The notes under the pieces were generated by a model that was not told the DNA's origin, did not search any database, and was given only the letters and a program-made list of their open reading frames with translations. Below, piece by piece: positions 3,094-35,033 of a stretch of DNA of 35,033 bases. How positions within the stretch are numbered: position 1 is the stretch's first letter; the number at the start of each line of letters is the position of its first letter. The translations under genes were made by a program, and so were the position numbers. Source of the DNA: Parcubacteria group bacterium GW2011_GWA2_37_10 (GTDB lineage Bacteria > Patescibacteriota > Minisyncoccia > Minisyncoccales > Staskawiczbacteraceae). The DNA is taken from the NCBI GenBank assembly GCA_000992015.1, contig LBSQ01000004.1, forward strand, positions 1-35,033, written 5' to 3'.

Positions 3094-5148
3094 TTGCAAA
3101 ATAAATTGGAAAAACAGTCTTTATTTTTAATTATTTTTCTTACGGTGTTTCTTGCTTTTTTTTCAGCTGAAGCAGTCTTGGCTGCTACGGGGACTATAAG
3201 CAGTTCTTACAAATATGCGTGGGGAAATTCCTCTGGCTGGATAAATTTTAAACCAACCAATGGAAATGTTTCCATTACCGATAATGCTCTGACCGGTTAT
3301 GTCTGGAGTGAAGTTTACGGTTGGATAAATTTGAATCCAGCAGGCAGCGGGATAAAAAATACCGCATCGGGCGTGCTTTCTGGATCTGCCTGGGGTCAAA
3401 ATACCGGCTGGATAAATTTTAGCGGAGTAACTATAAATTGTTCAGGAAGATTTGTCGGTACCGCTACAGGAGACGTTGTCGGCACAATTATTTTTGATTG
3501 CTCAAATTGCAATGTTACAACTGACTGGCGTCCAAGTTCTGGTTGCGGGGGAGGCGGGGGCCCGCCCCCGCCGCCTCCGCCGCCAGATTCGCACAATGAA
3601 TGCAATGCTCAAAAGCAGTGCGTTGCAGTAAGCGGGTCGGGAACCAGTCAATGCGCCAATGGCAATGATTGTAGCGCCCCAAAACATAACGAATGCAATG
3701 CCCAGAAACAGTGCGTTGCGATAGACGGAGAGGGCGATGAACAATGTCAAACAGATGTTGATTGCGCCCTTACGCACAGTGAGTGCAATAATAACGAGCA
3801 GTGTATATTTGTGTCGGGTTTCGGCTTAAACCAATGCGCAACAGACGTTGATTGCGGGCCCACTTACAATATTTGCAGTTCAATGCAGTGCGTTATTGCG
3901 CAGGGAATTGGCGCTGATCAATGCCAAAAAAATGAAGATTGTGTTTTTGAAATTTCGCCTGAATCTCCGCCAGTATTGCCCCTGGAAATTCCCCCAGTAA
4001 TACCGCCTGAAAATTCTCCGGTAATACCACCAACAACACCTCCTGCATTGCCACCCGGGAACACAGGAATAATAAATACATCTGTAAAAGCAATTGAAAA
4101 TATAACACAAACAGTAAATAAACAAATTCAGCAAACCATACAAGCCTCAGCAGAAACAGCAAAAGTTGTAACAAAAAATATTCAAAAAGCAATTGAAACC
4201 AAGCAGGGTTCTCTGATAACCAAAACAGTTTCAACCGTTGGAGCTGTAGCGGCAACTGCAGAAGTTGCAATAGCGATTGTTTTTTCTCCAATGGAAATAT
4301 TTTTGTTTATTTTTAGGTTGTCGGGCATTCTTTTGACTTCACTTGGTTTAAAAAGAAGAATCAAGCCTTGGGGAGTGGTTTATGATTCCGTCACAAAACA
4401 GCCGTTGGACCCAGCATATGTTGTTTTAAATGACCCCCAAGGAAAAGTTATTTCCTCTGCAATAACAGATATAGACGGCCGGTATGGTTTTTTAGAGCCT
4501 TCGGGAACTTACCAAATATCTGTCAATAAAACAAATTACGTCTTTCCGTCGCAAAAACTTGCCGGCAAAATAAACGACGAACTTTATAACGACCTTTATT
4601 TCGGAGAAAACATAGATATAGAACAAGGCGGGGAAACCATTACAAAAAATATTCCTATGGACCCTCTGAGGTTTGACTGGAATGAGTTTGCAAAGCGGGA
4701 CAAAAAATTAATGAATTTTTATTCGCGAGCGGATATAGCCCTAAGACGAATTTTTGATTTATTTTTTATAGTTGGGTTTGTGGTGGCTATTATAGCTTAC
4801 TTTGCCGCCCCTTACCCATACAACCTTATTATATTGACAGTTTATTTAATATTGCTTTTGTTAAGAACAATAGGCGTAAAGCCAAAAGCATACGGCAGAA
4901 TATTTAGCAGCGCTAACGGCAACCCTGTGTCCTTCGCTATTTTAAGAATAGTGATGCCTGATTCAAATGTGGAAGTCGCCCATAAAGTTGCAGATAAATA
5001 CGGAAGATATTATTGCTTGGTTCCAAAAGGAAAGTATTTTATAAAAATAGAAAAAAAGAACGATGACGGATCTTATTCTTTGGTTTATACTTCTTCCGTA
5101 ATTGACGCGTCTAAAAAAGGAATTATTAAAAACACTTTCCGGATATAA
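3094..5148 (+). CDS. large secreted/membrane-anchored surface protein (GWINF repeats, Cys-rich repeats, carboxypeptidase-regulatory-like domains)
   Basis: Signal-peptide-like N-terminus. Three SGWINF / YGWINL / TGWINF repeats, a G5P8 linker, four Cys-rich repeats of about 30 aa, a PPV/IPP spacer, TM helices and two beta-sandwich-like segments (DGRYGF..., KYGRYYCLVPKGKY). The start is TTG and uncertain. Confidence 0.6.
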   Translation: MQNKLEKQSLFLIIFLTVFLAFFSAEAVLAATGTISSSYKYAWGNSSGWINFKPTNGNVSITDNALTGYVWSEVYGWINLNPAGSGIKNTASGVLSGSAWGQNTGWINFSGVTINCSGRFVGTATGDVVGTIIFDCSNCNVTTDWRPSSGCGGGGGPPPPPPPPDSHNECNAQKQCVAVSGSGTSQCANGNDCSAPKHNECNAQKQCVAIDGEGDEQCQTDVDCALTHSECNNNEQCIFVSGFGLNQCATDVDCGPTYNICSSMQCVIAQGIGADQCQKNEDCVFEISPESPPVLPLEIPPVIPPENSPVIPPTTPPALPPGNTGIINTSVKAIENITQTVNKQIQQTIQASAETAKVVTKNIQKAIETKQGSLITKTVSTVGAVAATAEVAIAIVFSPMEIFLFIFRLSGILLTSLGLKRRIKPWGVVYDSVTKQPLDPAYVVLNDPQGKVISSAITDIDGRYGFLEPSGTYQISVNKTNYVFPSQKLAGKINDELYNDLYFGENIDIEQGGETITKNIPMDPLRFDWNEFAKRDKKLMNFYSRADIALRRIFDLFFIVGFVVAIIAYFAAPYPYNLIILTVYLILLLLRTIGVKPKAYGRIFSSANGNPVSFAILRIVMPDSNVEVAHKVADKYGRYYCLVPKGKYFIKIEKKNDDGSYSLVYTSSVIDASKKGIIKNTFRI
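3592..3942 (+). repeat. four tandem coding repeats (about 90 nt each) for a 4-Cys module, HNECNAQKQCVxxxGxGxxQCxxxxDC
   Basis: The first two units are near-identical at DNA level (cacaatgaatgcaatgctcaaaagcagtgcgttgc / cataacgaatgcaatgcccagaaacagtgcgttgc). Units 3 and 4 have diverged. Confidence 0.7.
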
Positions 5149-6936: not shown

Positions 6937-7007
6937 TCGGGGAAGGGAGAATCGAACTCCCACCATGCGCACCCCATGCGCATATCCTGCCGTTGGACCA
7001 TTCCCCG
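6937..7007 (-). tRNA. tRNA-Pro (anticodon GGG)
   Basis: The reverse complement folds as a cloverleaf: acceptor CGGGGAA/TTCCCCG, D stem GTCC/GGAT, anticodon stem TGCGC/GCGCA with loop AUGGGGU (U33, GGG, G37), T arm GGGAG-TTCGATT-CTCCC, discriminator A. CCA is not encoded. Confidence 0.85.
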
Positions 7008-9929: not shown

Positions 9930-12038
9930 ATGTCTAGAGAACACGCTTTAGATACGTTAAGAAATATTGGAATTATCGCTCACATTGACGCAGGAAAAAC
10001 TACGTTCTCTGAACGGTTGCTTTTTTATACAGGAGTTTCGCATAAAATTGGAGAAGTGCACGAAGGAGATACAGTTATGGATTGGATGGTTCAGGAAAGA
10101 GAGAGGGGAATTACAATTACCTCGGCCGCCACAACAATGTACTGGAGAAATCATCAGATAAACCTGATTGATACTCCAGGCCACATTGATTTTACAGCAG
10201 AAGTGCAGAGGTCTTTGCGAGTTTTAGACGGCGCAGTTGTTGTTTTTGACGGAGTTGCCGGAGTAGAACCGCAATCTGAAACAGTATGGCGCCAGGCAGA
10301 CAAATATAATGTTCCGCGCATTTGCTTTATCAATAAATTAGACAGAATGGGGGCCAGTTTTGAAAAGAGTTTTCAGTCAATTTTGAATAAATTAACTCCG
10401 AATGCGGTGGCAGTAACCATTCCAATGGGATTGGAAGAAAAACTATCCGGAGTTGTAGATTTAATAAAAATGAAGGCGCTTTATTTTGAGGGAGAAAAGG
10501 GAATTGATGTTGTTGAAAAAGAAATTCCCGAAGAGTGGAAAGTTGAGGCCGAAATATGGCGCAGAAAAATAATTGAAAAAGTTGCCGGCGAAGATAATAC
10601 TTTGACGGAAAAGTTTTTAGAAGGAAAAGAAATTTCAGTTGAGGAAATAAAAAATGTTTTGAGAAAATCAGTTTTAAATTATAAATTGGTGCCGGTATTT
10701 TGCGGAAGCGCCTTGAAAAATAAGGGAGTGCAGACAATTTTAGACGCGGTTGTTGAATTACTGCCTTCGCCGCTGGACGTAGTTTCACAAAAAGGAACCG
10801 ACCCAAAAACCGGAGCTGTAATAGAAAAAAAAGCAGATGACAACGAACCGTTTTCAGCTTTGGTTTTTAAGGTAGCCACAGACCCCTATGTCGGAACTTT
10901 AACTTATTTTAGAGTTTATTCCGGAGCTTTGAATAAAGGTTCTTATGTTTTGAATGCAAATACAGGAGAACAAGAAAGAATTGCCAGAATTTTGAGAATG
11001 CACGCAGACGAAAGGCAGGAGTTAGATGTTATTTATGCGGGCGAAATTGGAGCAACTGTGGGATTAAAAGCAACAAGCACGGGCCACACATTGTGCGACA
11101 AAGACCATCAGGTTATTTTAGAAAAAATTGTATTTCCAGAACCGGTTATCGGAATTAGGGTTGAGCCAAAAACAAAAGCAGACCAGGAAAAACTCATTAT
11201 GTCTATTAGAAAGTTAACCGAAGAAGACCCAACTTTTAGAATTAAGGAAGATATTGAAACCGGCGAAACAATTATTTCCGGCATGGGAGAATTGCATTTG
11301 GATATTATTGCAGACAGATTAAAAAGAGAATTTAAAGTTGAGGCTAATTACGGCAAGCCGCAGGTGGCATATAGAGAAACAATTACAGCCGAAGCAAATG
11401 GAGAAGAAAAATATGTGAGGCAGTCTGGCGGAAAAGGACAATACGGACACGTATTATTAAAAATAAAACCAAAAGAAAGAGGAGCCGGTTTTGAATTTAT
11501 TGATGAAATTAAAGGGGGAGCCATTCCAAAAGAATTTATTAAACCGGTAGAAAAAGGAGTTATTGAAGCGTTAGATAAGGGAATTGTAGCCGGATATACA
11601 ATGGTTGATGTTGAGGTTACATTATATGACGGGAGCTATCACGATGTTGATTCGTCTGAATTCGCTTTTAAAATTGCAGGTTCAATGGCTCTTCAAAAAG
11701 CCGCCAGAGCCGCAAAACCGGTTATTTTAGAGCCGGTTATGAAAATTGAAATTGTAACTCCTGAAAATTTCTTCGGGCAGGTTATTTCTGATGTAAGTTC
11801 AAGAAGAGGAAAAATTGAAGAAACAAGCGAGAGGGTTGGAATGAAAGTTGTTGATGCCTTTGTGCCGTTGTCTGAAACATTCGGATACGCAACATCTTTG
11901 CGTTCGCTTACAGAAGGCAGAGCAAGCGAGCGTGGCAATCTAAGGTTTTTGTGCGTTAACTCTGGATTGCTTCGTCGTTTTACTCCTCGCAATGACAGTT
12001 ACGAGATAATTTTGCAAATAAAAAGCGCCTCGGTCTGA
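9930..12038 (+). CDS. fusA: translation elongation factor G with an aberrant, repeat-derived C-terminus
   Basis: [18 protein letters not shown] and all five domains are recognisable up to ...[11 protein letters not shown]. The last 36 codons ([24 protein letters not shown]...) are read from a P-element copy and a cassette terminator. Confidence 0.85.
11925..11998 (+). repeat. P-element copy P0 (mainly the right half), fused to the fusA 3' end
   Basis: ...GGCAATCT...AACTCTGGATTGCTTCGTCGTTTTACTCCTCGCAATGACAG is close to the right arm of P1 (17155-17220). Confidence 0.7.
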
Positions 12039-13046: not shown

Positions 13047-13075
13047 TTGACTTATTTTAAATAATATAATAGAAT
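13047..13075 (+). promoter_or_regulatory. candidate promoter of tuf-rpsJ
   Basis: TTGACT - 17 nt - TAGAAT. Confidence 0.55.
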
Positions 13076-13110
13076 ACAATAACATTATTATAAATTAAAC
13101 GAAGCAGGGC

Positions 13111-13161
13111 ATATCCTTCGCCTGCGGGCTCAGGATGATTTACTCGCTTCGCTCATAAATC
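13111..13161 (+). repeat. R1 leader element, copy 1 (tuf)
   Basis: ATCCT-TCG-CCTGCGGG-CTC-AGGAT hairpin, mini-ORF ATG ATT TAC TCG CTT CGC TCA TAA (13135-13158), then ATC and the tuf ATG at 13162. Confidence 0.8.
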
Positions 13162-14358
13162 ATGGCAACAGAAAAATTTGAGAGGTCTAAACCTCACGTA
13201 AACATTGGTACCATTGGCCACGTAGACCATGGAAAAACCACATTGTCAGCCGCAATTATGAAGGTTTCAAAATTGCGCGGTTTTAAGTCTTCAGACAAAA
13301 ACGTTGACCAAATTGACGCTTCGCCTGAAGAAAAGGCAAGAGGGGTGACAATTTCTATTACACATTTGGAATGCGAGACTCCAAAAAGGCACTATGCTCT
13401 AATTGACTGCCCCGGACACGCTGACTACATTAAAAATATGATTACGGGAGCCGCTCAAATGGACGGCGGAATTTTGTTAGTTTCAGCTCCAGACGGACCT
13501 ATGCCGCAAACCAAAGAGCACATTTTGTTAGCCCGCCAAGTTGGCTTGCCGAGCTTGGTTGTGTTTATGAACAAGTGCGACATGGTTGATGACCCTGAAA
13601 TTTTGGACTTAGTTGAATCTGAGGTAAGAGAACTTTTAAAGAAAAATAAATATCCTGGAGATGAAACTCCTATTATAAGAGGTTCTGCCCTGAAAGCTTT
13701 AGAAGCCACATCGGTTGATGATCCGGCCGTAAAACCTATTATTGAATTAATGGATGCTGTTGATAATTTTGTTAAGGAGCCCGTAAGAGAACTAGATAAA
13801 CCGTTTGCAATGGCAATTGAAGACGTGTTTTCAATTGAAGGAAGGGGAACAGTTGCAACAGGAAGAATTGAAAGAGGAGTTATAAAACCAAACGAAGAGG
13901 TTGAAATAATCGGTATAAAGCCAACACAAAAAACAGTTGTTGTTTCGGTTGAAATGTTCCAGAAATCGCTTGATGAAGGAAGAGCCGGCGACAATGTCGG
14001 AATTTTGTTAAGGGGTTTGAAAAAAGAGGATATTGAAAGAGGCCAAGTAATCTGCAAGCCCGGAAGCATTACTCCTCACACTGAATTTGAAGGAGAAGTT
14101 TATGTTTTATCTAAAGAGGAAGGCGGAAGGCACACCCCATTTTTTACAGGATACAAACCTCAGCTTTATATCCGAACATCAGACATAACAGGTGACGTAA
14201 CTTTGCCAGAAGGAACAGAAATGGTAATGCCAGGAGATACAGCTAATTTGAAAGTTAAATTGATTGCGCCGATCGCTCTGGAGGAAAAAGGAAATTTTGC
14301 TATTAGAGAAGGAGGCAAAACAGTGGGAGCAGGAGTGGTAACTAAAATAACCAAGTAG
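13162..14358 (+). CDS. tuf: translation elongation factor Tu
   Basis: [28 protein letters not shown]; full-length EF-Tu. Confidence 0.97.
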
Positions 14359-14360
14359 AA

Positions 14361-14783
14361 ATGCCCGTTAAAAACCCAGCCGTAAAAAAGATAAGGGAGC
14401 GGAGCGAACACTTACCCCGAGCAACAGCGAAGGGAAAAAAAGATGAAGACGTAAAGGTAGAAAAAGAAGCCCCGGAAACGAGGCAGAAGCTTAGGATAAA
14501 ACTTAAAGCATATGACCACAAAATAATTGACAATTCAGCCCGCCAGATAATAGATATCGCAAATCGTTACGGGGCTGAGGTTGTGGGGCCGGTTCCCTTG
14601 CCAACTGAGATATTAAAATTTACGGTGAACAGGTCAACCTTTGTGCATAAAGACGCGAGGGAGCAGTTTGAAATGAGAGTCCACAAAAGAATTATTGATA
14701 TTATCAGTCCTAATGCAGATATAATAGAAGCCCTGCGCGACTTGAATTTGCCTTCAGGTGTTGACATTACGATAAAAATTTAA
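14361..14783 (+). CDS. rpsJ: 30S ribosomal protein uS10 with an N-terminal extension of about 38 aa
   Basis: The core [16 protein letters not shown]...PLPT...[20 protein letters not shown] is canonical. There is no internal Met, so the start at 14361 (2 nt after the tuf stop) is retained. Confidence 0.9.
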
Positions 14784-14806
14784 AAGTTTAGAAAAGTCCG
14801 AAAGTC

Positions 14807-14834
14807 TTGACAACAGGTTTGGATCTGCTATACT
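14807..14834 (+). promoter_or_regulatory. candidate promoter downstream of rpsJ
   Basis: TTGACA - 16 nt - TATACT with an extended -10 (TGc). Drives the tRNA-like gene and/or a short transcript ending at GTCCttcacgGGGCTTTTTT (about 14903-14923). Confidence 0.45.
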
Positions 14835-14954
14835 TAAATAAAGGCAGAGTAATCTATATAAACTATGGGTTATACTGTTGCTTGTCAGACAAAAGAGTCC
14901 TTCACGGGGCTTTTTTGTTTTTATATTTTTGATATAATAAATTTGTGGATCTGA

Positions 14955-15028
14955 GGGCCCGTAGTTTCATATAGTTAAAACTTTGCCTTTGACAAGCAAC
15001 GTAGCGGGTGCAACTCCCGCCGGGTCCA
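14955..15028 (+). tRNA. atypical tRNA-like gene; isotype ambiguous
   Basis: Acceptor GGGCCCG/CGGGTCC, D stem GTTT/AAAC, T arm GCGGG-TGCAACT-CCCGC, discriminator A. The anticodon stem TTGC(C)/(A)GCAA closes on a C.A mismatch, with loop UUUGACA. The 7-nt parse gives anticodon UGA with C37. A 9-nt loop parse puts GAC between U33 and A37. Confidence 0.5.
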
Positions 15029-15035
15029 CCCCAAA

Positions 15036-15064
15036 AAATCTGTCATTTTCTGACGGATTTTTTG
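15036..15064 (+). terminator. rho-independent terminator after the tRNA-like gene
   Basis: AAATCTGTCA ttttc TGACGGATTT, followed by further T residues. Confidence 0.7.
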
Positions 15065-15078
15065 TTTTCACCGCCTAG

Positions 15079-15107
15079 TTGGATTATTCTATTATTTTTG
15101 GTAGAAT
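15079..15107 (+). promoter_or_regulatory. candidate promoter of the 44-aa ORF
   Basis: TTGGAT - 17 nt - TAGAAT with an extended -10 (TGg). Confidence 0.5.
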
Positions 15108-15125
15108 AATATAAAGTAAAAAATT

Positions 15126-15260
15126 ATGTCAGAAGAATTAAAAAATTATTGTGAAGTTATTTTGACGGATTCAGAAAAATCAAAAGCCGAGCTGAAAAAA
15201 ATTTTAACAGAACACAAATTATCAATTCCCATTTTGCTGAAGTCAGAGTGGGAGAGGTAA
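15126..15260 (+). CDS. small hypothetical protein (44 aa)
   Basis: Not in the track. MSEELKNYCEVILTDSEKSKAELKKILTEHKLSIPILLKSEWER; native composition and a promoter upstream. Coding status uncertain. Confidence 0.35.
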   Translation: MSEELKNYCEVILTDSEKSKAELKKILTEHKLSIPILLKSEWER

Positions 15261-15280
15261 CCAGCAAGGCACTTGGACTG

Positions 15281-15309
15281 TTGACACGGAAACTAAAATA
15301 GACTATACT
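15281..15309 (+). promoter_or_regulatory. candidate promoter of rplC
   Basis: TTGACA - 17 nt - TATACT. Confidence 0.55.
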
Positions 15310-15441
15310 ATAAAATATACAATAAAGTTAGTTATTTACGCGATTGTTAACTTCCCAGCCTAAAGCTAAAGCATTATGGCGGGTAACAACATTGCTCCGA
15401 AGAATCGGGCAAGCGCCCGATTTTTCATTAGCAAAACAAAC

Positions 15442-16059: not shown

Positions 16060-16075
16060 TATTTTACAAAAAAAG

Positions 16076-16121
16076 AGCGCCTCGGCTGGAACTCGATAAA
16101 TCAAATTTCAGCCAAGGCGCT
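16076..16121 (-). terminator. terminator hairpin of cassette D
   Basis: AGCGCCTCGGCTG - 20 nt - CAGCCAAGGCGCT (13 bp, 1 mismatch). On the minus strand it is followed by CTTTTTTTGT, and it lies 10 nt past the cassette D stop. Confidence 0.65.
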
Positions 16122-16131
16122 TAACTGACGG

Positions 16132-16395
16132 TCACACGTTTGTGAATGGCACGGACCGCCCTTCATGGGGTCTTTCGCCTGCGAAAGTCTGGGATTCCCT
16201 CCTCGTCGATGTCGGCAGAGACGCGGGGTCTGGTTTTTCGAGAATGACCTCGATGGTGTCACTCTTGATGCCGGCAATTGCGAAGCCCTGATCTTGCTCA
16301 GTCTTGAGCCTCTCTAAGGATTCGATACTGAAGCAATCCATAAAGTGCTCCGTAAAGCAATGCTTGATTCGTAGCTGGATTGTTTTCCACGACAT
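16132..16395 (-). CDS. small hypothetical protein (87 aa), GC-rich cassette D, antisense between rplC and rplD
   Basis: CAGGAG (16402-16407 on the plus strand) lies 6 nt before the internal ATG (16393-16395). The longer track start (16476) would run through its own promoter. Confidence 0.65.
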   Translation of the reverse strand: MSWKTIQLRIKHCFTEHFMDCFSIESLERLKTEQDQGFAIAGIKSDTIEVILEKPDPASLPTSTRRESQTFAGERPHEGRSVPFTNV

Positions 16396-16447
16396 AGTGA
16401 ACTCCTGTAGAAATGCAGGGTAATGCAGAGTGAAGACCAATAATAAA

Positions 16448-16476
16448 AGTATAATAGAATATAAAAGAAAAGTCAA
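16448..16476 (-). promoter_or_regulatory. candidate promoter of cassette D
   Basis: On the minus strand, TTGACT (16471-16476) - 17 nt - TATACT (16448-16453). It overlaps a plus-strand TATAAT/TAGAAT (16450-16460) that could serve rplD. Confidence 0.55.
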
Positions 16477-16494
16477 CCATATTAAAAGATTAAA

Positions 16495-17130: not shown

Positions 17131-17220
17131 CGTCATTGCGAGGAGCCCGCAGGCGACGCGGCAATCTGGAAACTCTGGAATTGCTTCGTCAGTCGCTAAA
17201 GCTCCTTCCTCGCAATGACA
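17131..17220. repeat. P element copy P1: about 90-nt imperfect palindrome
   Basis: CGTCATTGCGAGGAGC...GCGACGCGGCAATCT / ...ATTGCTTCGTC...CCTCGCAATGACAG. The outer 12-bp arms GTCATTGCGAGG/CCTCGCAATGAC are perfect. Confidence 0.8.
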
Positions 17221-18630: not shown

Positions 18631-18706
18631 CGTTATTGCGAGGAGCGTAGCGACGAAGCAATCTAAACAATGCGTGAGATTGCTTCGTTACCGCTCGCAA
18701 TGACGG
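18631..18706. repeat. P element copy P2: about 76-nt imperfect palindrome
   Basis: CGTTATTGCGAGGAGCGTAGCGACGAAGCAATCT - 12 nt - AGATTGCTTCGTTACCGCTCGCAATGACGG. Confidence 0.8.
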
Positions 18707-19060: not shown

Positions 19061-19098
19061 ACATATCGCTACGTTAAAAACATATCGCTACGCTAATT
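19061..19098 (+). repeat. R2 motif, two tandem copies (ACATATCGCTACGTTAAAA / ACATATCGCTACGCTAATT)
   Basis: Direct tandem repeat immediately after the rpsS stop and before rplV. A third copy lies at 21805-21822. Confidence 0.7.
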
Positions 19099-21033: not shown

Positions 21034-21402
21034 ATGATTCAATTACGTTCAATGTTAAAAGTCGCAGATAATACTGGAGCAAAAATTATCCAATGTATTA
21101 ATGTGCCCGGAGGAACACGCAGGAGATATGCTCAGCTGGGCGATATTATTGTTGCAGTTGTAAAAAAAGCAGAACCAAGAAAATTGGTAAAAAAACACGA
21201 AAAAGTAAAGGCAGTAATTATCAGGCAAAGAAAGGAATATAAAAGGAGTGACGGTTCTTATATTCGTTTTGACGATAACGCAGCAGTGATATTAGGCGAC
21301 GGAAAGGCTCCGAAAGGGAGCAGAATTTTAGGGCCTGCGGCAAAAGAATTAAAAGACAAGGGCTTTGATAAAATTGCCATGATGGCAAGCGAATTATTAT
21401 AA
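21034..21402 (+). CDS. rplN: 50S ribosomal protein uL14
   Basis: [17 protein letters not shown]...IRFDDNAAV. Confidence 0.97.
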
Positions 21403-21404
21403 AA

Positions 21405-21458
21405 GGAATATCCCTCGCCTGCGGGCTCGGGATGATTTTTTCACTTCGTTCACAAATC
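21405..21458 (+). repeat. R1 leader element, copy 2 (rplX)
   Basis: ATCCC-TCG-CCTGCGGG-CTC-GGGAT hairpin. The mini-ORF ATG (21432) ATT TTT TCA CTT CGT TCA has CAA instead of TAA, so it reads through into rplX. Confidence 0.8.
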
Positions 21459-21803
21459 ATGAAAATTAAAAAAGGCGATAACGTTTTGATAATATCAGGC
21501 AAAGATAAGGGCAGGACCGGCAAGGTGTCAAGGGCTTTTCCTAAAGAAGGGGGTATTTTAGTAGAAGGAATTAATTTAAAAAAGAAGCACGTAAGACCGA
21601 AAAAGGAAGGAGGAAAAGGGCAGGTCGTTGACATTCCGGCAGCGATAGAAGTTTCAAATGTTAAAATAATTTGCCCGAAATGCGGAAAGGCAGTGAGAGT
21701 TGGATATAAAATTGACCCTTCGGCAGGCTTCGGCGCGGCTCAGGGCAAGCGCTCAGGGCAAGCGAAAAAGAGAATTTGTAGAAAATGTAAGCAAGAAGTA
21801 TAA
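21459..21803 (+). CDS. rplX: 50S ribosomal protein uL24 (in-frame GC-rich insert near the C-terminus)
   Basis: MKIKKGDNVLIISGKDKGRTGKV is the canonical uL24 N-terminus. The track start at 21432 would add MIFSLRSQI from the R1 mini-ORF. Confidence 0.9.
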   Translation: MKIKKGDNVLIISGKDKGRTGKVSRAFPKEGGILVEGINLKKKHVRPKKEGGKGQVVDIPAAIEVSNVKIICPKCGKAVRVGYKIDPSAGFGAAQGKRSGQAKKRICRKCKQEV

Positions 21804-21804
21804 T

Positions 21805-21822
21805 ATATCGCTACGTTAAAAA
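21805..21822 (+). repeat. R2 motif, copy 3 (ATATCGCTACGTTAAAAA), abutting the rplE ATG
   Basis: Identical 18-mer to 19063-19080. Confidence 0.7.
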
Positions 21823-22392: not shown

Positions 22393-22453
22393 ACACTTCC
22401 GCTTCGGTAAAAACCTCAGTGTAAGTGTGATTTACTCGCTTCGCTCATAAATC
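22393..22453 (+). repeat. R1 leader element, copy 3 (rpsN)
   Basis: ACACT...AGTGT outer stem (alternative CACTT...AAGTG), inner CCGcttCGG. Mini-ORF GTG ATT TAC TCG CTT CGC TCA TAA (22427-22450), then ATC and the ATG at 22454. Confidence 0.75.
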
Positions 22454-22639
22454 ATGGCAAAAAAATCACAGGAAATAAAAGCAAAAAAGAAGCCTAAATA
22501 TCCATCGAGAAAAATTCGGCGCTGTTTTAAATGCGGAAGGCGGCATGGTTTTATGAGAGCATTCGGACTATGCAGAATATGCTTTAGGGAATTAGCAAAT
22601 AAAGGCGAAATTCCCGGCGTTAAAAAATCTTCTTGGTAA
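22454..22639 (+). CDS. rpsN: 30S ribosomal protein uS14, zinc-binding short form
   Basis: 61 aa with CFKCGRRHG...CRICFRE. Confidence 0.95.
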
Positions 22640-24157: not shown

Positions 24158-24781
24158 ATGGCAGAAGACAAAGTGGTCGTAGACCAAATAAAAAAATCAA
24201 ATGATGGTTTTGTGCCTATTCCTACCGGCGAGCCAACAGCTCCTCGTGTTGGTTTTGGTCATGGGCAAGGGCAGAGAGGCGGGGGATTCGGGCAAAATAG
24301 AAAACCCGGCTTTGGACGCGCAGGCCTTGGCAGAGGGGCGCCAAAAGACGAGTTTGAGTCAAAGCTTTTAGACTTAGCCCGAGTTACAAGAGTTACAGGA
24401 GGCGGAAAGAGGATGAGTTTTAGGGCAGTTGTGGTTGCCGGAGATAAAAAAGGAAAAATTGGTATCGGCATAGACAAAGGAAAAGATGTTTCTCAGGCGA
24501 TTGAGAAAGCCACCCGCAAAGCGAAAAAGAATTTAGTAAGTGTTATTATTACAGAAGGAACTATTCCTTATCAGGTTGAAGCAAAGGCGGGACCTGCGCA
24601 AATTTTACTGAAACCTCAGAAAAAGGGAAGAGGTTTAGTTGCAGGCGGAGCTGTGAGGACTATTTGCGAATTGGCCGGCATAAAAAATATTTCTTCAAAA
24701 ATTCTTTCCGGTTCTAAAAACAAACTTAACAATGCAATGGCGACAATGGAAGCATTGAAGAAATTAAAAGCAAAGAGTTAG
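24158..24781 (+). CDS. rpsE: 30S ribosomal protein uS5 with a Gly/Arg-rich N-terminal extension
   Basis: RVTRVTGGGKRMSFRAVVVAGD, GIGIDKGKDV, LKPQKKGRGLVAGG. Confidence 0.95.
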   Translation: MAEDKVVVDQIKKSNDGFVPIPTGEPTAPRVGFGHGQGQRGGGFGQNRKPGFGRAGLGRGAPKDEFESKLLDLARVTRVTGGGKRMSFRAVVVAGDKKGKIGIGIDKGKDVSQAIEKATRKAKKNLVSVIITEGTIPYQVEAKAGPAQILLKPQKKGRGLVAGGAVRTICELAGIKNISSKILSGSKNKLNNAMATMEALKKLKAKS

Positions 24782-24840
24782 GTAACCCTTCGTCCCGCCT
24801 TATGGGACTCAGGGTGATTTATTCACTTCGTTCATAAATC
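24782..24840 (+). repeat. R1 leader element, copy 4 (rplO)
   Basis: ACCCT-TCG-TCCCgccttatGGGA-CTC-AGGGT. Mini-ORF GTG ATT TAT TCA CTT CGT TCA TAA (24814-24837), then ATC and the ATG at 24841. Confidence 0.8.
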
Positions 24841-25272
24841 ATGCAAATACACGAACTAAAACCAAAGCATAAAAACAGGGATAAAAAGCGGGTCGGCAGA
24901 GGAGGAAAAAAGGGTACTTATTCCGGAAAAGGAAATAAAGGCCAAAGTTCAAGAGCCGGCAGAAAAATGGTGCCCATAATCAGGGAATTGATAAAAAGGT
25001 ATCCAAAATTAAGAGGATACAGAAGATTTGTTCTGAAAGATTTTTCAGTTGTAGTAAGCCTTGACGTCCTAGAAAAAAATTCAAAAAACGGCGAAATAAT
25101 CAATCCTGAAAATTTGATTAAAAATGGAATTGTCCGTATGATAAAAGGAAAGGTTCCAAAAATTAAGATATTGGGTTCCGGAAAACTTACAAAACCGCTT
25201 ACTGTTGAAAATTGTAAAGTTTCAAAGTCGGCGAAAGACGCAATTGAAAAAGCCGGCGGTATTATAAAGTAA
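24841..25272 (+). CDS. rplO: 50S ribosomal protein uL15
   Basis: LKPKHKNRDKKRVGRGGKKGTYSGKGNKGQ. It follows rpsE directly, so there is no rpmD. Confidence 0.94.
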   Translation: MQIHELKPKHKNRDKKRVGRGGKKGTYSGKGNKGQSSRAGRKMVPIIRELIKRYPKLRGYRRFVLKDFSVVVSLDVLEKNSKNGEIINPENLIKNGIVRMIKGKVPKIKILGSGKLTKPLTVENCKVSKSAKDAIEKAGGIIK

Positions 25273-25297: not shown

Positions 25298-25672
25298 ATG
25301 GAAATTACTGATAAAATTAAAAATATAATTGATGAAATCGTCAGGCAATACAGGCCAGAAAAAATCATACTTTTTGGTTCTTTTGTATGGGGAAATCCAA
25401 ACAAAGATAGCGATATTGATTTATTTATAATAAAACAGAGTCAGAAAAGTAGAATTGAGCGCCAAAGAGAATTGAGGTTAAAACTTTTTGGCTCTGACTT
25501 CCCCGCAATGGATATTTTGGTTTACACCCCAGAGGAAGTTGAAAAAAGCATCAATGAATATAAAAATCTTTTTATAGAAGATATTTTGCGCCATGGAAAG
25601 GTTCTTTATTCTAAACCAGGAAGCCTATTTAATGTAGCGCTTCCTAAAAGGCGATTAAATATTTTGCATTAA
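25298..25672 (+). CDS. nucleotidyltransferase-domain protein (MNT-type, putative antitoxin)
   Basis: LFGSFVWGNPNKDSDIDL is the GSxxxGx(n)DxD motif of the Pol-beta NTase fold. Small size and pairing with a HEPN gene. Confidence 0.8.
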   Translation: MEITDKIKNIIDEIVRQYRPEKIILFGSFVWGNPNKDSDIDLFIIKQSQKSRIERQRELRLKLFGSDFPAMDILVYTPEEVEKSINEYKNLFIEDILRHGKVLYSKPGSLFNVALPKRRLNILH

Positions 25673-25678
25673 ATTATT

Positions 25679-26062
25679 ATGCTAACAGATTATGTAAAAA
25701 GCTGGTTTCAGCGGGCAGATGAAGATTTAGCGCTTATTGAAGTTATCTTAAAGGAGGAATCTTTTTCTCCTAACCCAGTTTGTTTTCATGCTCAGCAGGC
25801 GGCAGAAAAATATCTGAAAGGATTTCTAGCTTATCACGATTTGCACACGAGAAAAATTCACGATTTGGAAGCGCTTGTTGAGGACTGCGTAAAAATTGAT
25901 AAATCTTTTGGGGCGCTAAAAGATAGCGCAGGATTTTTAGATCAGTTTTATATTGGATCGCGCTACCCAGATGATTATATAGAATTTTCCCGAAATGACG
26001 CAAAAAAAGCATACGAAGCGGCAATTAAAATCAAAAATTTTATTTTAGGAAAAATTAAATAA
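25679..26062 (+). CDS. HEPN-domain protein (putative toxin partner of the MNT gene)
   Basis: All-helical, 127 aa, with AEKYLKGFL...HDLEAL...GSRYPDD features typical of HEPN (PF05168-like). Starts 6 nt after the MNT stop. Confidence 0.75.
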   Translation: MLTDYVKSWFQRADEDLALIEVILKEESFSPNPVCFHAQQAAEKYLKGFLAYHDLHTRKIHDLEALVEDCVKIDKSFGALKDSAGFLDQFYIGSRYPDDYIEFSRNDAKKAYEAAIKIKNFILGKIK

Positions 26063-26182
26063 AGATTATCAAAAAAGTAAATCATTTATTTTGGGGTTAT
26101 AGTTCAGAAATGCCAAATTATAAAATTTATAATCAAATTCTTTCCACTTTTAAATTTATAAAATAAAAATTAAAAATAGCAA

Positions 26183-26237
26183 GGCATACCCTTCGCCTGC
26201 GGGACTCAGTGTGATTTTCTCGCTTTGCTCGTAAATC
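26183..26237 (+). repeat. R1 leader element, copy 5 (secY)
   Basis: ACCCT-TCG-CCTGCGGGA-CTC-AGTGT. Mini-ORF GTG ATT TTC TCG CTT TGC TCG TAA (26211-26234), then ATC and the ATG at 26238. Confidence 0.8.
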
Positions 26238-27515
26238 ATGTGGTACGATAAAATATTATTTTTATTTAAAAGCAAAGACCTTAGAAAAAAATTTCTTATT
26301 GTAATTTTTCTTTTTGTTGTTTTTAGGATAGCTGCCAATATACCTATTCCGGGAATTGGACTGGAAAACTTAAGGAAGTTTTTTGCCGAAAATCAGGTTT
26401 TCGGTTTGTTAAATATATTTTCAGGCGGAGCTCTGAGTAATTTTTCCATTGTTTTGTTGGCGCTTGGGCCATATATTACAGCTACGATTATTTTGCAATT
26501 GCTGACAATGATTTTTCCTGCGCTGGAAAGAATATACAAAGAAGAGGGCGAAGCCGGCAGGCAAAAATTTAATCAATACTCAAGGCTTTTAACCATTCCG
26601 CTAGCCGTTTTTGAAGGTTACGGAATGATAACTTTATTCCAACGCCAAGGAATAATTTCATCTCTTCCAATATCTGTTTTGATAAGTTCAATTCTAACAA
26701 TTACCGCGGGCGCAATGTTTATGATGTGGATCGGTGAAATTATTACAGAGCAGGGAATGGGAAACGGAATTTCACTTCTGATCTTTGCAGGAATAGTTGC
26801 AACACTGCCGATTAATATTTTTCAAACATTTGTCGCATGGGATCCGTCAAAAATTCCCTCGTATTTTTTATTTTTTGTATTATCCTTGGTTATTATAGCC
26901 GGTGTAGTTTTAATTACTGAAGCCAGAAGAAATATTCCGGTTTCTTATGCAAAAAGGGTAAGGGGAAATAAAATGTACGGCGGCGTTTCTACATATCTGC
27001 CTTTAAATGTTAATCCGGCCGGAGTTATTCCAATTATTTTTGCTCTCTCTATACTTTTGTTTCCGGGAATGATAGCAAGTTTTTTGGGCGGAACCCCCGG
27101 ATTTGTTGGAACAGTTGCAACTGCCGCCGGAGCTTTTTTCAACAACATTTGGGTGCACGGAATATTATATTTTTTGCTGGTTATTTTATTCACCTATTTT
27201 TATACCGCGGTCACTTTTGACCCAAAAACAATTGCTGAAAATTTGCAAAAAATGGGCGGTTTTATCCCGGGCGTAAGGCCAGGAAATTCAACGGCCGTTT
27301 TTCTAAAGCATATACTAAACAGAGTTTTGTTTACCGGGGCCATATTTTTGGGACTAATTGCTGTTCTGCCGTCAATTATTGCCGGAGCGACAGGCGTAAC
27401 CGGTTTTACATTCTTAATCGGAGGAACATCTCTTTTAATCGTGGTTTCAGTTGTTTTAGACACAATGCGCCAAATTAACGCGCAATTGCAAATGCGCGAA
27501 TACGACACTTTCTAA
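26238..27515 (+). CDS. secY: preprotein translocase subunit SecY
   Basis: 10 TM helices, LGPYITATIILQLL, GEIITEQGMGNGISLLIFAGI. Confidence 0.96.
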   Translation: MWYDKILFLFKSKDLRKKFLIVIFLFVVFRIAANIPIPGIGLENLRKFFAENQVFGLLNIFSGGALSNFSIVLLALGPYITATIILQLLTMIFPALERIYKEEGEAGRQKFNQYSRLLTIPLAVFEGYGMITLFQRQGIISSLPISVLISSILTITAGAMFMMWIGEIITEQGMGNGISLLIFAGIVATLPINIFQTFVAWDPSKIPSYFLFFVLSLVIIAGVVLITEARRNIPVSYAKRVRGNKMYGGVSTYLPLNVNPAGVIPIIFALSILLFPGMIASFLGGTPGFVGTVATAAGAFFNNIWVHGILYFLLVILFTYFYTAVTFDPKTIAENLQKMGGFIPGVRPGNSTAVFLKHILNRVLFTGAIFLGLIAVLPSIIAGATGVTGFTFLIGGTSLLIVVSVVLDTMRQINAQLQMREYDTF

Positions 27516-29518: not shown

Positions 29519-29552
29519 GGTAGCGTTTTTGTCGATCGACAAATTTACTACC
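29519..29552. repeat. 34-bp palindrome, upstream copy (imperfect), overlapping the promoter of the PaaX-like gene
   Basis: GGTAGCGTTTTTGTCGA|TCGACAAATTTACTACC. The left half is identical to the copy at 30167-30183. Confidence 0.8.
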
Positions 29553-29615: not shown

Positions 29616-30158
29616 ATGAAAAACTCTGTAATTGAGGAAATTTTATTGCATTTATACGATTCTATTGATTATGGTTTTAGTTATAGAGCAAAGAAAGGGC
29701 TTTGGATTTCGGAATATTTTGACCATTGGAAAAATGAAGTTAGTTCAAACAAAATAAAAGATGGAATCAGGGATTTAAATAAACAAAAATTTATAAAGAA
29801 AAAAGAAAATTATAACGGTACGGTGCTCGTTTCCCTTACAGAAAAAGGGATGCTGAGGGCGCTAAATATTATTTTTAGAAGGCTTGAAAACAGGAAAGAA
29901 AAATGGGATGGAAAATGGAGAATATTTGCTTTTGATATTCCGGAAGAATGCAGGAAGGGAAGGAACGCATTAAGGTACAGATTCAAGTCGGGTGGATTTT
30001 ACGAGCTCCAGAAAAGCTTGTTTGTTTACCCATACGATTGCCAAAAAGAAGTAGCGGCGCTGGTCAAGATGTTCAAATTGGAAAAATATGTTAGATTTGT
30101 TTTGGCGGACTTTATTGATAATGAAGAGCGTTTGAAAAATAGATATAAATTGAATTGA
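29616..30158 (+). CDS. PaaX-like regulator: N-terminal winged-helix-like part plus a C-terminal Cas2/VapD-fold domain
   Basis: WDGKWRIFAFDIPEECRKGRNALRYRFKSGGFYELQKSLFVYPYD matches the PaaX_C / Cas2-like ferredoxin-fold signature as recalled from memory. No cas1 or CRISPR array nearby. Confidence 0.55.
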   Translation: MKNSVIEEILLHLYDSIDYGFSYRAKKGLWISEYFDHWKNEVSSNKIKDGIRDLNKQKFIKKKENYNGTVLVSLTEKGMLRALNIIFRRLENRKEKWDGKWRIFAFDIPEECRKGRNALRYRFKSGGFYELQKSLFVYPYDCQKEVAALVKMFKLEKYVRFVLADFIDNEERLKNRYKLN

Positions 30159-30165
30159 TAATTGG

Positions 30166-30201
30166 CGGTAGCGTTTTTGTCGATCGACAAAAACGCTACC
30201 G
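30166..30201. repeat. 36-nt perfect palindrome, downstream copy (may also act as a terminator hairpin)
   Basis: CGGTAGCGTTTTTGTCGA|TCGACAAAAACGCTACCG, starting 8 nt after the PaaX-like stop. A T-rich tract follows about 12 nt later. Confidence 0.85.
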
Positions 30202-34153: not shown

Positions 34154-34235
34154 GTTATCCTTCACTTTCAGGCAATGAACAATTTTTCTCAGCCTGAAGT
34201 TCAGGATGATTTTATTCGCTATGTTTATAAAATCA
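34154..34235 (+). repeat. R1 leader element, copy 6 (degenerate, with an internal insertion)
   Basis: ATCCTTCactttCAGG ... CTCAGCCTGAAGTTCAGGATGATTTTATTCGCTATGTTTATAAAATCA, followed by ATGGCA. Compare the consensus ...CTCAGGATGATTTACTCGCTTCGCTCATAAATC ATGGCA. Confidence 0.55.
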
Positions 34236-35033
34236 ATGGCAAAAAAAATATACGACATTAAGCCGCCCAAAATAGCTAAAAAAACAGAGGACGATATAAA
34301 GCCCTTTATTGATGGCGATAAAAAAAACCATATTAAAAAAGAACCTTTGAAAAAAGGCAGTAAAGATAACCGTCGGAGAAAAGAAAAGAAATTTCCGCTT
34401 GGAAAATTTTTGGCCGGGACGGGAATTTTGGTTGTTGTAATAGCCGTATATTTATTTTTTAAATTGCCCAGGGCAGATATACAAATTTGGCCGAAGACGG
34501 ATGTTTTGAGTTTTAAGGAGACAATAACTGCGGACAAAACAATTGATTCAAACGATTTAACCAACAAAGTTATTCTAGCTCTGTATTTGGAAGAAGAGAA
34601 AGATGGTTCACAAGATTTTCCTGCTACAGGGTCGGCTTCAAATGAAGGTAAAGCAACGGGCACAATAAAAATTTATAATAAATTTGATCCGCCTTCGTCA
34701 ATTACATTGAAGACAGGCACTCACTTTTTATCTGATTCCGGTAAATATTTTGTGACATTGCAAAAAATTGTAGTGCCGGCAGGGAAAAAACAAGGAGCAA
34801 AAATTACTCCAGGCCTAATAACCGTAAAAGTAGAAGCCGCAGAATCCGGGCCAGGTTATAATATAAAATCGGCCAAGTTTTCTGTGCCAAAATTATCGGG
34901 TACGCCATACTATTATAGTATTTATGCAGAATCGACAGAGGCAATGGCCGGCGGATATACAGGCAAGGTGAAAAAAATAACTGACGACGATATTCAGGGG
35001 GCAAAAGATGTTTTAACCAGAAAAATATTAGAT
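34236..35033 (+). CDS. membrane-anchored protein, N-terminal 266 aa (3' end outside the window); resembles the CPR family often annotated as baseplate J/gp47-like
   Basis: Missing from the track because it has no stop in the window. MAKKIYDIKPPK..., a basic stretch, TM helix GILVVVIAVYLFF, then ...SQDFPATGSASNEGKATGTIKIYNKF... The frame is open to 35033. Confidence 0.65.
   Translation, partial: MAKKIYDIKPPKIAKKTEDDIKPFIDGDKKNHIKKEPLKKGSKDNRRRKEKKFPLGKFLAGTGILVVVIAVYLFFKLPRADIQIWPKTDVLSFKETITADKTIDSNDLTNKVILALYLEEEKDGSQDFPATGSASNEGKATGTIKIYNKFDPPSSITLKTGTHFLSDSGKYFVTLQKIVVPAGKKQGAKITPGLITVKVEAAESGPGYNIKSAKFSVPKLSGTPYYYSIYAESTEAMAGGYTGKVKKITDDDIQGAKDVLTRKILD

Follow-up and report, generated by a model that had tools for sequence, protein, structure and literature searches.

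We describe a two-hairpin repeat of roughly 55-70 nt, here denoted R1, that directly precedes start codons in a 35,033-nt contig of Parcubacteria group bacterium GW2011_GWA2_37_10 (LBSQ01000004.1; hereafter, the window, that is, the whole stretch of DNA that was analyzed). The hosts of R1 are tiny groundwater bacteria, Patescibacteria of the Paceibacteria type, in which the Shine-Dalgarno (SD)/anti-SD system has been lost. The reading we favor, with a probability of roughly 40%, is that R1 is a modular 5'-leader or intercistronic cassette, propagated by copy and paste, which would provide an SD-independent initiation region and be transcribed together with the downstream gene. We favor it because of the fixed orientation of the copies, their locking to the start codon even where free spacer is available, the identity of the downstream genes, the retention of R1 at tuf and secY, and a host lacking both SD motifs and the anti-SD. 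R1 appears to be undescribed, with no account of it found in the searchable literature. The first-pass annotation of this DNA had not recognized it as a described leader or REP family, and it matches no Rfam family: the whole window, searched with Rfam 15 at the gathering threshold, gave a single match, a tRNA at 6937-7007, and the tuf copy, searched at E<=10, gave only chance-level matches (13-17 bits, against cut-offs of 100-150).

Copies and structure of R1

R1 is a real repeat family whose 3' end is locked to start codons. The five copies that the first-pass annotation had reported ahead of tuf, rplX, rpsN, rplO and secY were all recovered on the + strand, at the coordinates given below, each ending in AAATC followed at once by ATG; a Pfam search identified the products of the downstream genes as EF-Tu, L24, S14, L15 and SecY. 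Together they form the largest direct-repeat family of the window (D1), and a degenerate 29-nt pattern matched these five sites only, all on the + strand, with 0 matches expected from 100 shuffles. A sixth, degenerate copy, absent from that annotation, occupies 34157-34235, one base before the ATG at 34236 (AAAATCA-ATG), which opens an open reading frame (ORF) extending past the window end. The corresponding covariance-model match, 34197-34240, spans this ATG (18.7 bits, E 0.008), and the folding z-score of the copy is -4.1. Run with filters off on both strands of the window, the covariance model detected nothing beyond the six copies, each of which lies on the + strand and runs up to a start codon.

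The tuf leader (13097-13161; ATG at 13162; 60 bits in the covariance model) consists of a 5' extension (AAACGAAGCAGGGCAT, 13097-13112), hairpin 1 (ATCCT, TC, GCCTGCGGGC, TC, AGGAT; 13113-13136) and hairpin 2 (TGATTTAC, TC, GC-TTC-GC, TC, ATAAATCA; 13136-13162). Such extensions, often of 8-16 nt, read AAGGCATA or, before tuf, ACGAAGCAGGGCATA. A promoter-like site on the + strand, identified by consensus match only (TTGACT-17-TAGAAT, 13047-13075), lies 5' of this copy; if it is used, R1 would make up nearly the entire tuf 5' untranslated region (UTR). The rplX leader (21405-21458; ATG at 21459) occupies the rplN-rplX spacer (rplN stop codon at 21400-21402), with hairpin 1 (ATCCC/GGGAT) at 21410-21433 and hairpin 2 at 21433-21459. 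Between rplE and rpsN (22393-22453; ATG at 22454), hairpin 1 (ACACT/AGTGT, inner part CGCTTCGGTAAAAACC; 22393-22422) is separated by an additional AAGTG (22423-22427) from hairpin 2 (22428-22454). The rplO leader (24782-24840; ATG at 24841) begins directly after the rpsE stop codon (TAG, 24779-24781) and is composed of hairpin 1 (ACCCT/AGGGT, inner part GTCCCGCCTTATGGGAC; 24785-24815) and hairpin 2 (24815-24841). The secY leader (26181-26237; ATG at 26238) starts with AAGGCATA and continues with hairpin 1 (ACCCT/AGTGT, one mismatch; 26188-26212) and hairpin 2 (26212-26238). In the sixth copy, the outer stem of hairpin 1 is ATCCT/AGGAT, with a long inner stem, ACTTTCAGGC/GCCTGAAGT (34157-34207), and hairpin 2 reads GATGATTTTAT-TCGCTATGTT-TATAAAATCA. 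The five outer stems listed first, including the single mismatch at secY, are those read in the first-pass annotation. Where the upstream spacer is long (165 nt for tuf, 175 nt for secY), R1 still adjoins the ATG, not the upstream stop codon.

Both hairpins follow the same plan, in which a stem and UC lead to a mini-hairpin, followed by UC and the second arm of the stem. In hairpin 1, the outer stem has 5 bp and covaries at position 2 (CG 32, UA 33), position 5 (UA 57, CG 10) and position 3, where four pair types occur; the GC-rich inner hairpin is variable, with 59 distinct versions of 8-38 nt. In hairpin 2, the stem measures 7-9 bp and is separated by the UC/UC internal loop from a 2-bp helix capped by a UUY triloop. 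Among 113 model-aligned copies, its two inner pairs are AU in 56, GC in 47 and GU in 2, and CG in 102 and UA in 3, and the top pair of the stem is UA in 51, CG in 22 and AU in 3. Paired cells amount to 93.8%, compared with 87.8% after shuffling, and the observed value was reached in 0 of 500 shuffles; the invariance of the middle of the stem in this set is partly due to the search pattern, which fixed those bases. Copies found by synteny present the same loop on other stems (GAATTT/AAATTC, TTATTT/AAATAA and TCTTGT/ACAAGA). This covariation upholds, for both hairpins, the earlier proposal of compensatory changes, and both are real, structured elements. The two helices abut without a linker, and the AUG emerges at their junction. 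At secY of one relative (locus L039), only a shortened hairpin, GTGATTTGC-TTC-GCAAATCAT, is present.

On the mRNA strand, hairpin 2 is weak, with a mean of -2.8 kcal/mol, so that there is no need for it to block initiation. The suggestion that it buries both start codons is not supported by this value, and the extra pair involving the AU of AUG shows no covariation. Several further structural roles were considered and rejected. Among the copies whose ATG lies 2 nt further on, the purine that precedes TGATTT and the T or C that follows AAATCA show no correlation (A-C 14, A-T 12, G-C 10, G-T 12), so that an additional pair between them is not indicated. A pseudoknot between the 5' extension (CGAAGC / AGCAAGGC) and the loop of hairpin 2 is predicted for tuf and secY, and copies with an ACUUCGU loop have no partner for it. 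An intrinsic terminator is not indicated either: no terminator-like site was seen on the + strand at any R1 copy of the window, and hairpin 1 is followed by GAUUUA.

Distribution, gene set and turnover

The hairpin 2 core TGATTTNNTCNCTTNGNTCNNAAATC, with no ATG required, was sought first in one genome per species and then in metagenomes, which gave 49 and more than 119 stretches, respectively. About two-thirds of these come from Patescibacteria (bins that bear the labels Staskawiczbacteria, Sungiibacteriota, Paceibacteria, 'Patescibacteria group' and, in a few cases, Saccharibacteria). A profile search of public genomes and metagenomes identified approximately 145 R1 copies in Patescibacteria loci (Paceibacteria/Staskawiczbacteria-like). 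In 121 of these, an ATG-led ORF begins within 4 nt after AAATC, always in the orientation of the gene; most of the others are at contig ends or are partial or tandem copies 5' of a full copy. In the full nhmmer table, ATG follows AAATC at once in 62 copies and after 2 nt in 55 (AAATCAC-ATG or AAATCAT-ATG), with offsets of 1 or 4 nt being rare. The coding DNA of the window is 67-83% identical to that of many R1 loci, and two metagenome contigs match the window at 99.4-99.6% identity, which assigns it to a Paceibacteria lineage near Ca. Staskawiczbacteria. A promoter-like site only about 15-110 nt from the tuf and rplJ copies would place R1 inside primary 5' UTRs. Lone hairpin 2 cores, without hairpin 1 and away from a start codon, occur in an IMG/VR contig classed as viral (L050, 3887-3912) and in L108.

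The gene set is strongly biased toward highly expressed components of the translation apparatus. Among the 108 distinct proteins encoded downstream of R1, Pfam searches identified SecY, L15, L7/L12, EF-Tu, L33, L18, S18, S11, L6, L17, L23, S14, S8, L21, L5, RpoC and several tRNA synthetases; NusG, DnaK and a pilin-like protein were recognized from their N-terminal sequences, and a few of the genes encode kinases or unknowns. Translation genes are enriched more than 10-fold. The breadth of the set, more than 25 gene families including SecY, RpoC, DnaK and kinases, led us to reject the interpretation of R1 as a ribosomal-protein autoregulatory leader.

R1 is gained or lost at the same gene starts among relatives (rplB, rpsQ, rplN, rplX, rpsH, rplF, rplR, rplO and secY), in agreement with the mobile leader cassette that was among the roles proposed earlier. 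Empty sites have spacers of 1-20 nt, and where R1 is present it spans the whole gap between the stop codon and the ATG. Occupancy is uneven: 5 of 5 lineages at tuf, 10 of 13 at secY (with one vestige) and 6 of 11 at rplO. At secY of L140, a vestige of R1, AAGGC-GATTT-GTAAATC-ATG, appears to have lost hairpin 1 and the loop of hairpin 2 and kept both arms and the junction with the ATG. At a given gene, the type of hairpin 1 differs between genomes, the same type recurs at different genes, and tandem or decaying partial copies lie 5' of full copies in four loci (L005, L018, L043 and L054); the family has thus been copied and replaced over time. The family is also under constraint: among tuf orthologs, the coding DNA is only 78-88% identical, yet the 26-nt cores differ by 0-1 nt.

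The native genes of the window lack an SD, as had been noted before: an SD-core 4-mer occurs at positions -20 to -4 in 2 of 37 genes, against 6.7 +/- 2.4 at random positions. Three R1-bearing contigs contain 16S rRNA genes (L013 at about 2377, L128 at about 1850 and L118 at about 10835, the last one split by insertions across about 5.8 kb). These genes end in GGAAUGAUUCAAAU, GGAUCAUUUUUUU and GGAUCAUAUUUUUU (after helix 45: GGAAUGAUUCAAAU, GGAUCAUUUUUUUAAAAAU and GGAUCAUAUUUUUUAAAAAUG), and none has the CCUCC of the anti-SD; two of the three end in GGAUCAU followed by a run of U. Loss of the anti-SD has indeed been published for part of the Parcubacteria (PMC9297842; PMC10783764). A large branch of Patescibacteria (Parcubacteria/Paceibacteria) no longer has this tail on its 16S rRNA. 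An alternative SD, ATTTGAA, found before rpsG and fusA and complementary to the 16S tail of L013, was rejected: it occurs 13 times on the + strand and 12 times on the - strand, with 2 occurrences near starts. In L013, a Patescibacteria genome of 53% GC, an R1-type hairpin 2 (3849-3884, - strand) adjoins the 5' end of the 16S rRNA gene. Position 1 of the Rfam SSU model falls within the 3' arm of this hairpin, TTAAATCA, and the arm is on that account probably part of the mature 16S rRNA. The 16S genes of L118 and L128 have no R1-type hairpin at their 5' ends.

The first-pass annotation had read the second half of R1 as a 7-codon mini-ORF (M-I-Y/F-S-L-R/C-S) that would couple translation by re-initiation, or else as a distant SD (AGGRTGAT) that hairpin 2 would bring near the AUG. 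In all five copies considered there, an ATG or GTG does lie 27 nt upstream of, and in frame with, the main ATG, and the part of the claim concerning the TAA stop codon and the in-frame main ATG (TAA-ATC-ATG) stands for four of the five; it falls for rplX, where CAA replaces TAA, so that the supposed mini-ORF continues in frame into rplX, and the ORF finder therefore starts this gene at 21432. Across the family, neither the frame nor the stop is conserved. In about half of all copies, the main ATG is 2 nt further on and out of frame; the stop codon is absent from the GAAAATC copies (c21 = A) as well as from the rplX copy, and the shortened hairpin at secY of L039 holds no mini-ORF at all. The variable, seemingly synonymous 'third positions' c8, c11, c17 and c20 form the covarying pairs c8-c20 and c11-c17, whose spacing happens to be in multiples of three. 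As for an SD, the 16S tails GGAUCAUUUUUUU and GGAUCAUAUUUUUU do retain an AUCAU with which RUGAU could pair. However, the SD-like motif is 24-27 nt from the AUG, outside the 5-10 nt range of an SD, and lies within the hairpin stems, so that it cannot be paired in cis and bound in trans at once; no covariation links the purine preceding UGAU to its supposed partner, and the matching CCUCC tail is missing from the three 16S genes. Largely refuted by these comparisons, both the mini-ORF, most probably an artefact, and the distant SD are essentially excluded.

Function, mobility and the active strand

Under the favored reading of R1 as an SD-independent leader cassette, hairpin 1 would fold stably and insulate the start region against RNA lying upstream, such as the 3' end of the cistron before it; protection of the transcript may be a further role. 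In hairpin 2, an A-U-rich stem of 7-9 bp carries the conserved loop UC-RC-UUY-GY-UC; predicted to be only marginally stable on the mRNA, this hairpin would breathe and thereby expose a pyrimidine-rich stretch of about 26 nt that ends in a native-like AAAUC-AUG. A conserved loop on a variable stem is a likely recognition site for a partner acting in trans; candidates are the 30S subunit, protein S1 and a regulator under which genes of the translation apparatus would be jointly controlled. New copies may arise by copy and paste, through transposition-like insertion or recombination between copies, and would be retained where the gene they serve is highly expressed.

A conserved loop on a variable stem by a start site is typical of protein-binding switches, in which one factor can control many mRNAs, and R1 presents this operator-type pattern, with a conserved loop and a covarying stem next to the start codon. 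We infer that R1 may bind the ribosome or a factor. The stronger proposal that R1 functionally replaces the SD, as a portable ribosome-recruiting element akin to an internal ribosome entry site or as a regulon-wide translational operator, seems to us rather unlikely. Pairing of the hairpin 2 loop with 16S rRNA was rejected as a basis for recruitment. The heptamer GCGAAGC, complementary to the loop over 7 nt, is conserved in the h26 region of the three 16S genes, a match expected about once in ten cases by chance for a 7-mer in 1.5 kb; the ACUUCGU variant pairs less well, and the covariation of the loop argues for pairing within it. None of the three 16S sequences contains a copy of the loop motif itself.

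Several observations weigh against an SD-independent leader. The loop-16S complementarity just described is close to chance level and conflicts with pairing within the loop. In mRNA, a 2-bp helix with a triloop is thermodynamically negligible unless bound by something. Close relatives have spacers of 1-20 nt and no R1 at the same genes and evidently manage, so that most sites can do without it. In other phyla, represented by Planctomycetes, Bacteroidota (near tRNA genes), Clostridia, an Omnitrophota bin and an archaeal (Thermoplasmata) bin, the hairpin module recurs away from start codons, its variable positions again complementary; it is also present inside the left end of an IS200-family element. 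Finally, the antisense strand gives hairpin 2 roughly double the stability (-5.7 vs -2.8 kcal/mol on the mRNA), with UC/UC turned into tandem sheared G.A pairs that surround a GCGAAGC-type mini-hairpin. Its non-Watson-Crick cells on the mRNA strand comprise 31 C.A and 2 G.U, with not one U.G against about 11 expected. This wobble signature and the antisense stability suggest that at least part of the constraint on hairpin 2 acts on the other strand or on the DNA. The outer stem of hairpin 1 gives the opposite picture on the mRNA strand (10 G.U vs 0 A.C), and its inner stems have 6 wobble pairs in the sense and 16 in the antisense direction. The wobble-pair test of the active strand is therefore contradictory, with counts that are only indicative as the copies are not independent; under the favored reading, the mRNA would be the active form.

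These observations bring in an alternative that we regard as possible, if somewhat less probable than the leader cassette, namely, that R1 is a selfish or neutral DNA repeat of the REP/MITE kind that is tolerated only at start codons. The hairpins would then be selected as single-stranded DNA substrates of a mobilizing enzyme, such as a Y1/HUH transposase, on the strand antisense to the genes, as the stability and wobble signature of hairpin 2 would favor. In compact genomes, insertions would survive only in the gap that separates a stop codon from the following ATG; of the two orientations, only the one yielding a weak mRNA hairpin would be tolerated, and with no SD needed, an insertion touching the ATG would be harmless. 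The turnover described above fits this scenario: hairpin 1 types are swapped between sites and genomes, partial copies decay in tandem upstream of full ones, and indels at the same gene starts are clean, the rplF-rplR junction reading TAA-C-ATG in the window and TAA-[53 nt]-C-ATG in L083. Other palindromic repeat families are present in the same operon of the window, and in Vallitaleaceae, an IS200-family element with a Y1_Tnp gene contains the hairpin module 16 nt in from its left end.

However, the hairpins common to both ends of the Vallitaleaceae element are CCAC...GTGG rather than the R1 module, and no transposase adjoins any Patescibacteria copy, according to tblastn searches with two Y1 transposases against the 172 fetched loci, which are genome fragments. 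The only IS200-like TnpA on an R1-bearing Patescibacteria contig (L148) has unrelated end hairpins (CTACGG...CCGTAG). No target-site duplication was seen, the sole common flank being CAT, which is the start codon itself; when occupied sites are compared with empty ones, the insertion point is uncertain by 1-2 nt. A selfish repeat also leaves unexplained the more than 10-fold enrichment at translation genes, the occupancy of tuf and secY across lineages only 70-80% identical, the near identity of the core despite diverged coding DNA, and the adjacency to the ATG where 165-175 nt of spacer lie free; the mRNA-strand wobble signature of hairpin 1's outer stem is a further point against it. The more specific idea of a non-autonomous element derived from IS200/IS605 (PATE) is not supported, as the R1 hairpins match both ends of no autonomous element among those examined (L148 and Vallitaleaceae).

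A less probable alternative is that R1 punctuates the transcript: an endonuclease would recognize the two stacked hairpins and cut at the 3' foot of hairpin 2, freeing an mRNA that is leaderless or has a 2-nt leader and leaving the hairpins as the protective 3' end of the upstream fragment, a logic like that of mitochondrial tRNA punctuation. The 3' foot of hairpin 2 is indeed 0-2 nt from the AUG in more than 80% of copies, operon-internal copies begin 0-5 nt after the upstream stop codon, and the L013 copy adjoins the 5' end of a 16S rRNA gene. Hosts without SD and anti-SD may rely on leaderless-type initiation, and at least one gene of the window has a -10 box 6 nt from its ATG (AGTATAAT-AATCTA-ATG at 32234). 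Against this, the varying offset (0, 1, 2 or 4 nt) leaves no single cleavage register that would generate a 5'-AUG, R1 is not tRNA-like (the tRNA at 6937-7007 being the only one found with Rfam in the window), and the tuf and rplJ copies are in primary 5' UTRs close to promoter-like sites. The 3' arm of the L013 hairpin probably belongs to the mature 16S, and the other two 16S genes lack such a hairpin. A promoter for leaderless transcripts inside R1 was also rejected: none of the first five copies of the window has a -10-like hexamer at a workable distance from the ATG.

Neighboring features, known systems and implications

The Vallitaleaceae IS200-family element with its R1-like hairpin was found in L010 (6245-6270), L024, L040 and L094 (9390-9415); it consists of a Y1 transposase gene, a left end TTTTTTTGTACGCTTTAGCGT... 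and a right end ...CCACTAGCTAAGCTAGTGGTCCTGATT, and many metagenome contigs break at it. Copies of the module in Flavobacteriia were suspected to lie beside a TPP riboswitch; Rfam detected none, and tRNA genes are nearby instead.

A second palindromic repeat family of the window comprises copies at 17131-17217, 18632-18700 and 11965-11996 (GTCATTGCGAGGAGC...GACGAAGCAATC / GATTGCTTCGTC...CCTCGCAATGAC). Its copy before rplW provides, through CGCAATGAC, the rplW ATG at 17215; the copy before rpsS stops 22 nt 5' of the ATG, and one arm lies inside the 3' end of fusA. A leader motif, ATATCGCTACG(T/C)TAA, forms a tandem pair before rplV (19061-19097) and occurs singly, directly before the ATG, at rplE (21804-21822); it also precedes rplF in the relative L083, and its TCGCTACG core resembles variant R1 loops. 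The rplV and rplE leaders ATATCGCTACGTTAAAAA were rejected as half copies of R1, as switching off the filters of the covariance model still brought no match to them. A 34-nt palindrome-containing sequence (GGTAGCGTTTTTGTCGATCGACAAA..., at 29519-29552 and 30167-30200) flanks a 180-aa ORF at 29616-30158 (D5/I1).

Between rplO and secY, inside the spc operon, Pfam searches identified a nucleotidyltransferase (Polbeta/NTP_transf_2) and HEPN gene pair at 25298-26062, which resembles an MNT-HEPN toxin-antitoxin module. In the S10 operon, unusually long non-coding gaps flank rplC, at 14784-15375 (592 nt) and 16060-16494 (435 nt). The first of these contains a strong promoter-like site at 14807-14834 (TTGACA-16-TATACT with TG) followed by a terminator-like hairpin at 14887-14920, which together could specify a small transcript, and a second promoter-like site at 15281-15309. 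The S10 (rpsJ) ORF at 14361-14783 encodes 140 aa, with the Pfam domain starting only from residue 45, so that the protein either has an N-terminal extension or its start was called too far upstream.

Like REP/BIME and REPINs of enterobacteria, Correia/NEMIS of Neisseria and BOX/RUP of pneumococci, R1 is a short, structured, multi-copy intergenic repeat that is transcribed within operons, varies in a modular fashion and is polymorphic between relatives; such repeats are able to affect mRNA stability or expression. With six copies in 35 kb and about 145 in Patescibacteria loci, R1 qualifies as a short, often-repeated intergenic palindrome in the sense used for REPs and REPINs. In contrast to these families, it has one orientation, a 3' end 0-2 nt from the start codon and a preference for genes of the translation apparatus; to our knowledge, none of them is placed precisely at start codons. 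Alignment of the copies on both strands shows no GTAG of the REP kind, the feet of the hairpins being CTCAGGR/TGATTT and AAATC(AY)ATG, and no RAYT or other transposase was found beside the Patescibacteria copies in the genome fragments that make up the 172 fetched loci. The end of the Vallitaleaceae element, an IS200/IS605-type end that reads GATTTTT-GA-AC-GAA-GT-GA-GGAAATC on the transposase strand, shares the loop and architecture of R1; the resemblance is limited to the left end, and no such element was found beside the Patescibacteria copies of R1.

Among regulatory RNAs, the replicase operators of MS2 and Qbeta and the iron-responsive elements are, like R1, small hairpins with a conserved loop and a variable stem at a start site. 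R1 differs in that its stem stops at the AUG, it has no internal SD, and a second hairpin is obligatory upstream; the protein that would bind it is hypothetical. The E. coli rpsA leader and the Kozak-like, A-rich leaders of Bacteroidota support initiation without SD pairing, as proposed for R1, which ends in an A-rich context with C at -1 that resembles the native spacers of these genomes. Those leaders have gene-specific sequences and are not a repeated cassette, and Bacteroidota retain the anti-SD of 16S rRNA, unlike the R1-bearing contigs. With the tRNA punctuation and t-elements of organelles, R1 has in common a structured RNA at the 5' coding boundary within a polycistronic transcript and no SD pairing; it is not tRNA-like, and its processing is hypothetical.

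For annotation, R1 is a source of spurious N-terminal extensions in gene calls, such as rplX called from 21432, and a useful marker of start codons in these genomes. If R1 is only a selfish repeat, it would represent a family whose survivable niche is the single position before the start codon, a niche that would exist because the host needs no SD. If R1 does replace the SD or acts as an operator, ribosomal proteins, EF-Tu, RNA polymerase, SecY and chaperones would be under one control, as with the 5'TOP motif of eukaryotes. R1 is a defined, conserved and portable mark at the start codons of the most highly expressed genes, through which the choice of start sites in the absence of an anti-SD becomes testable.

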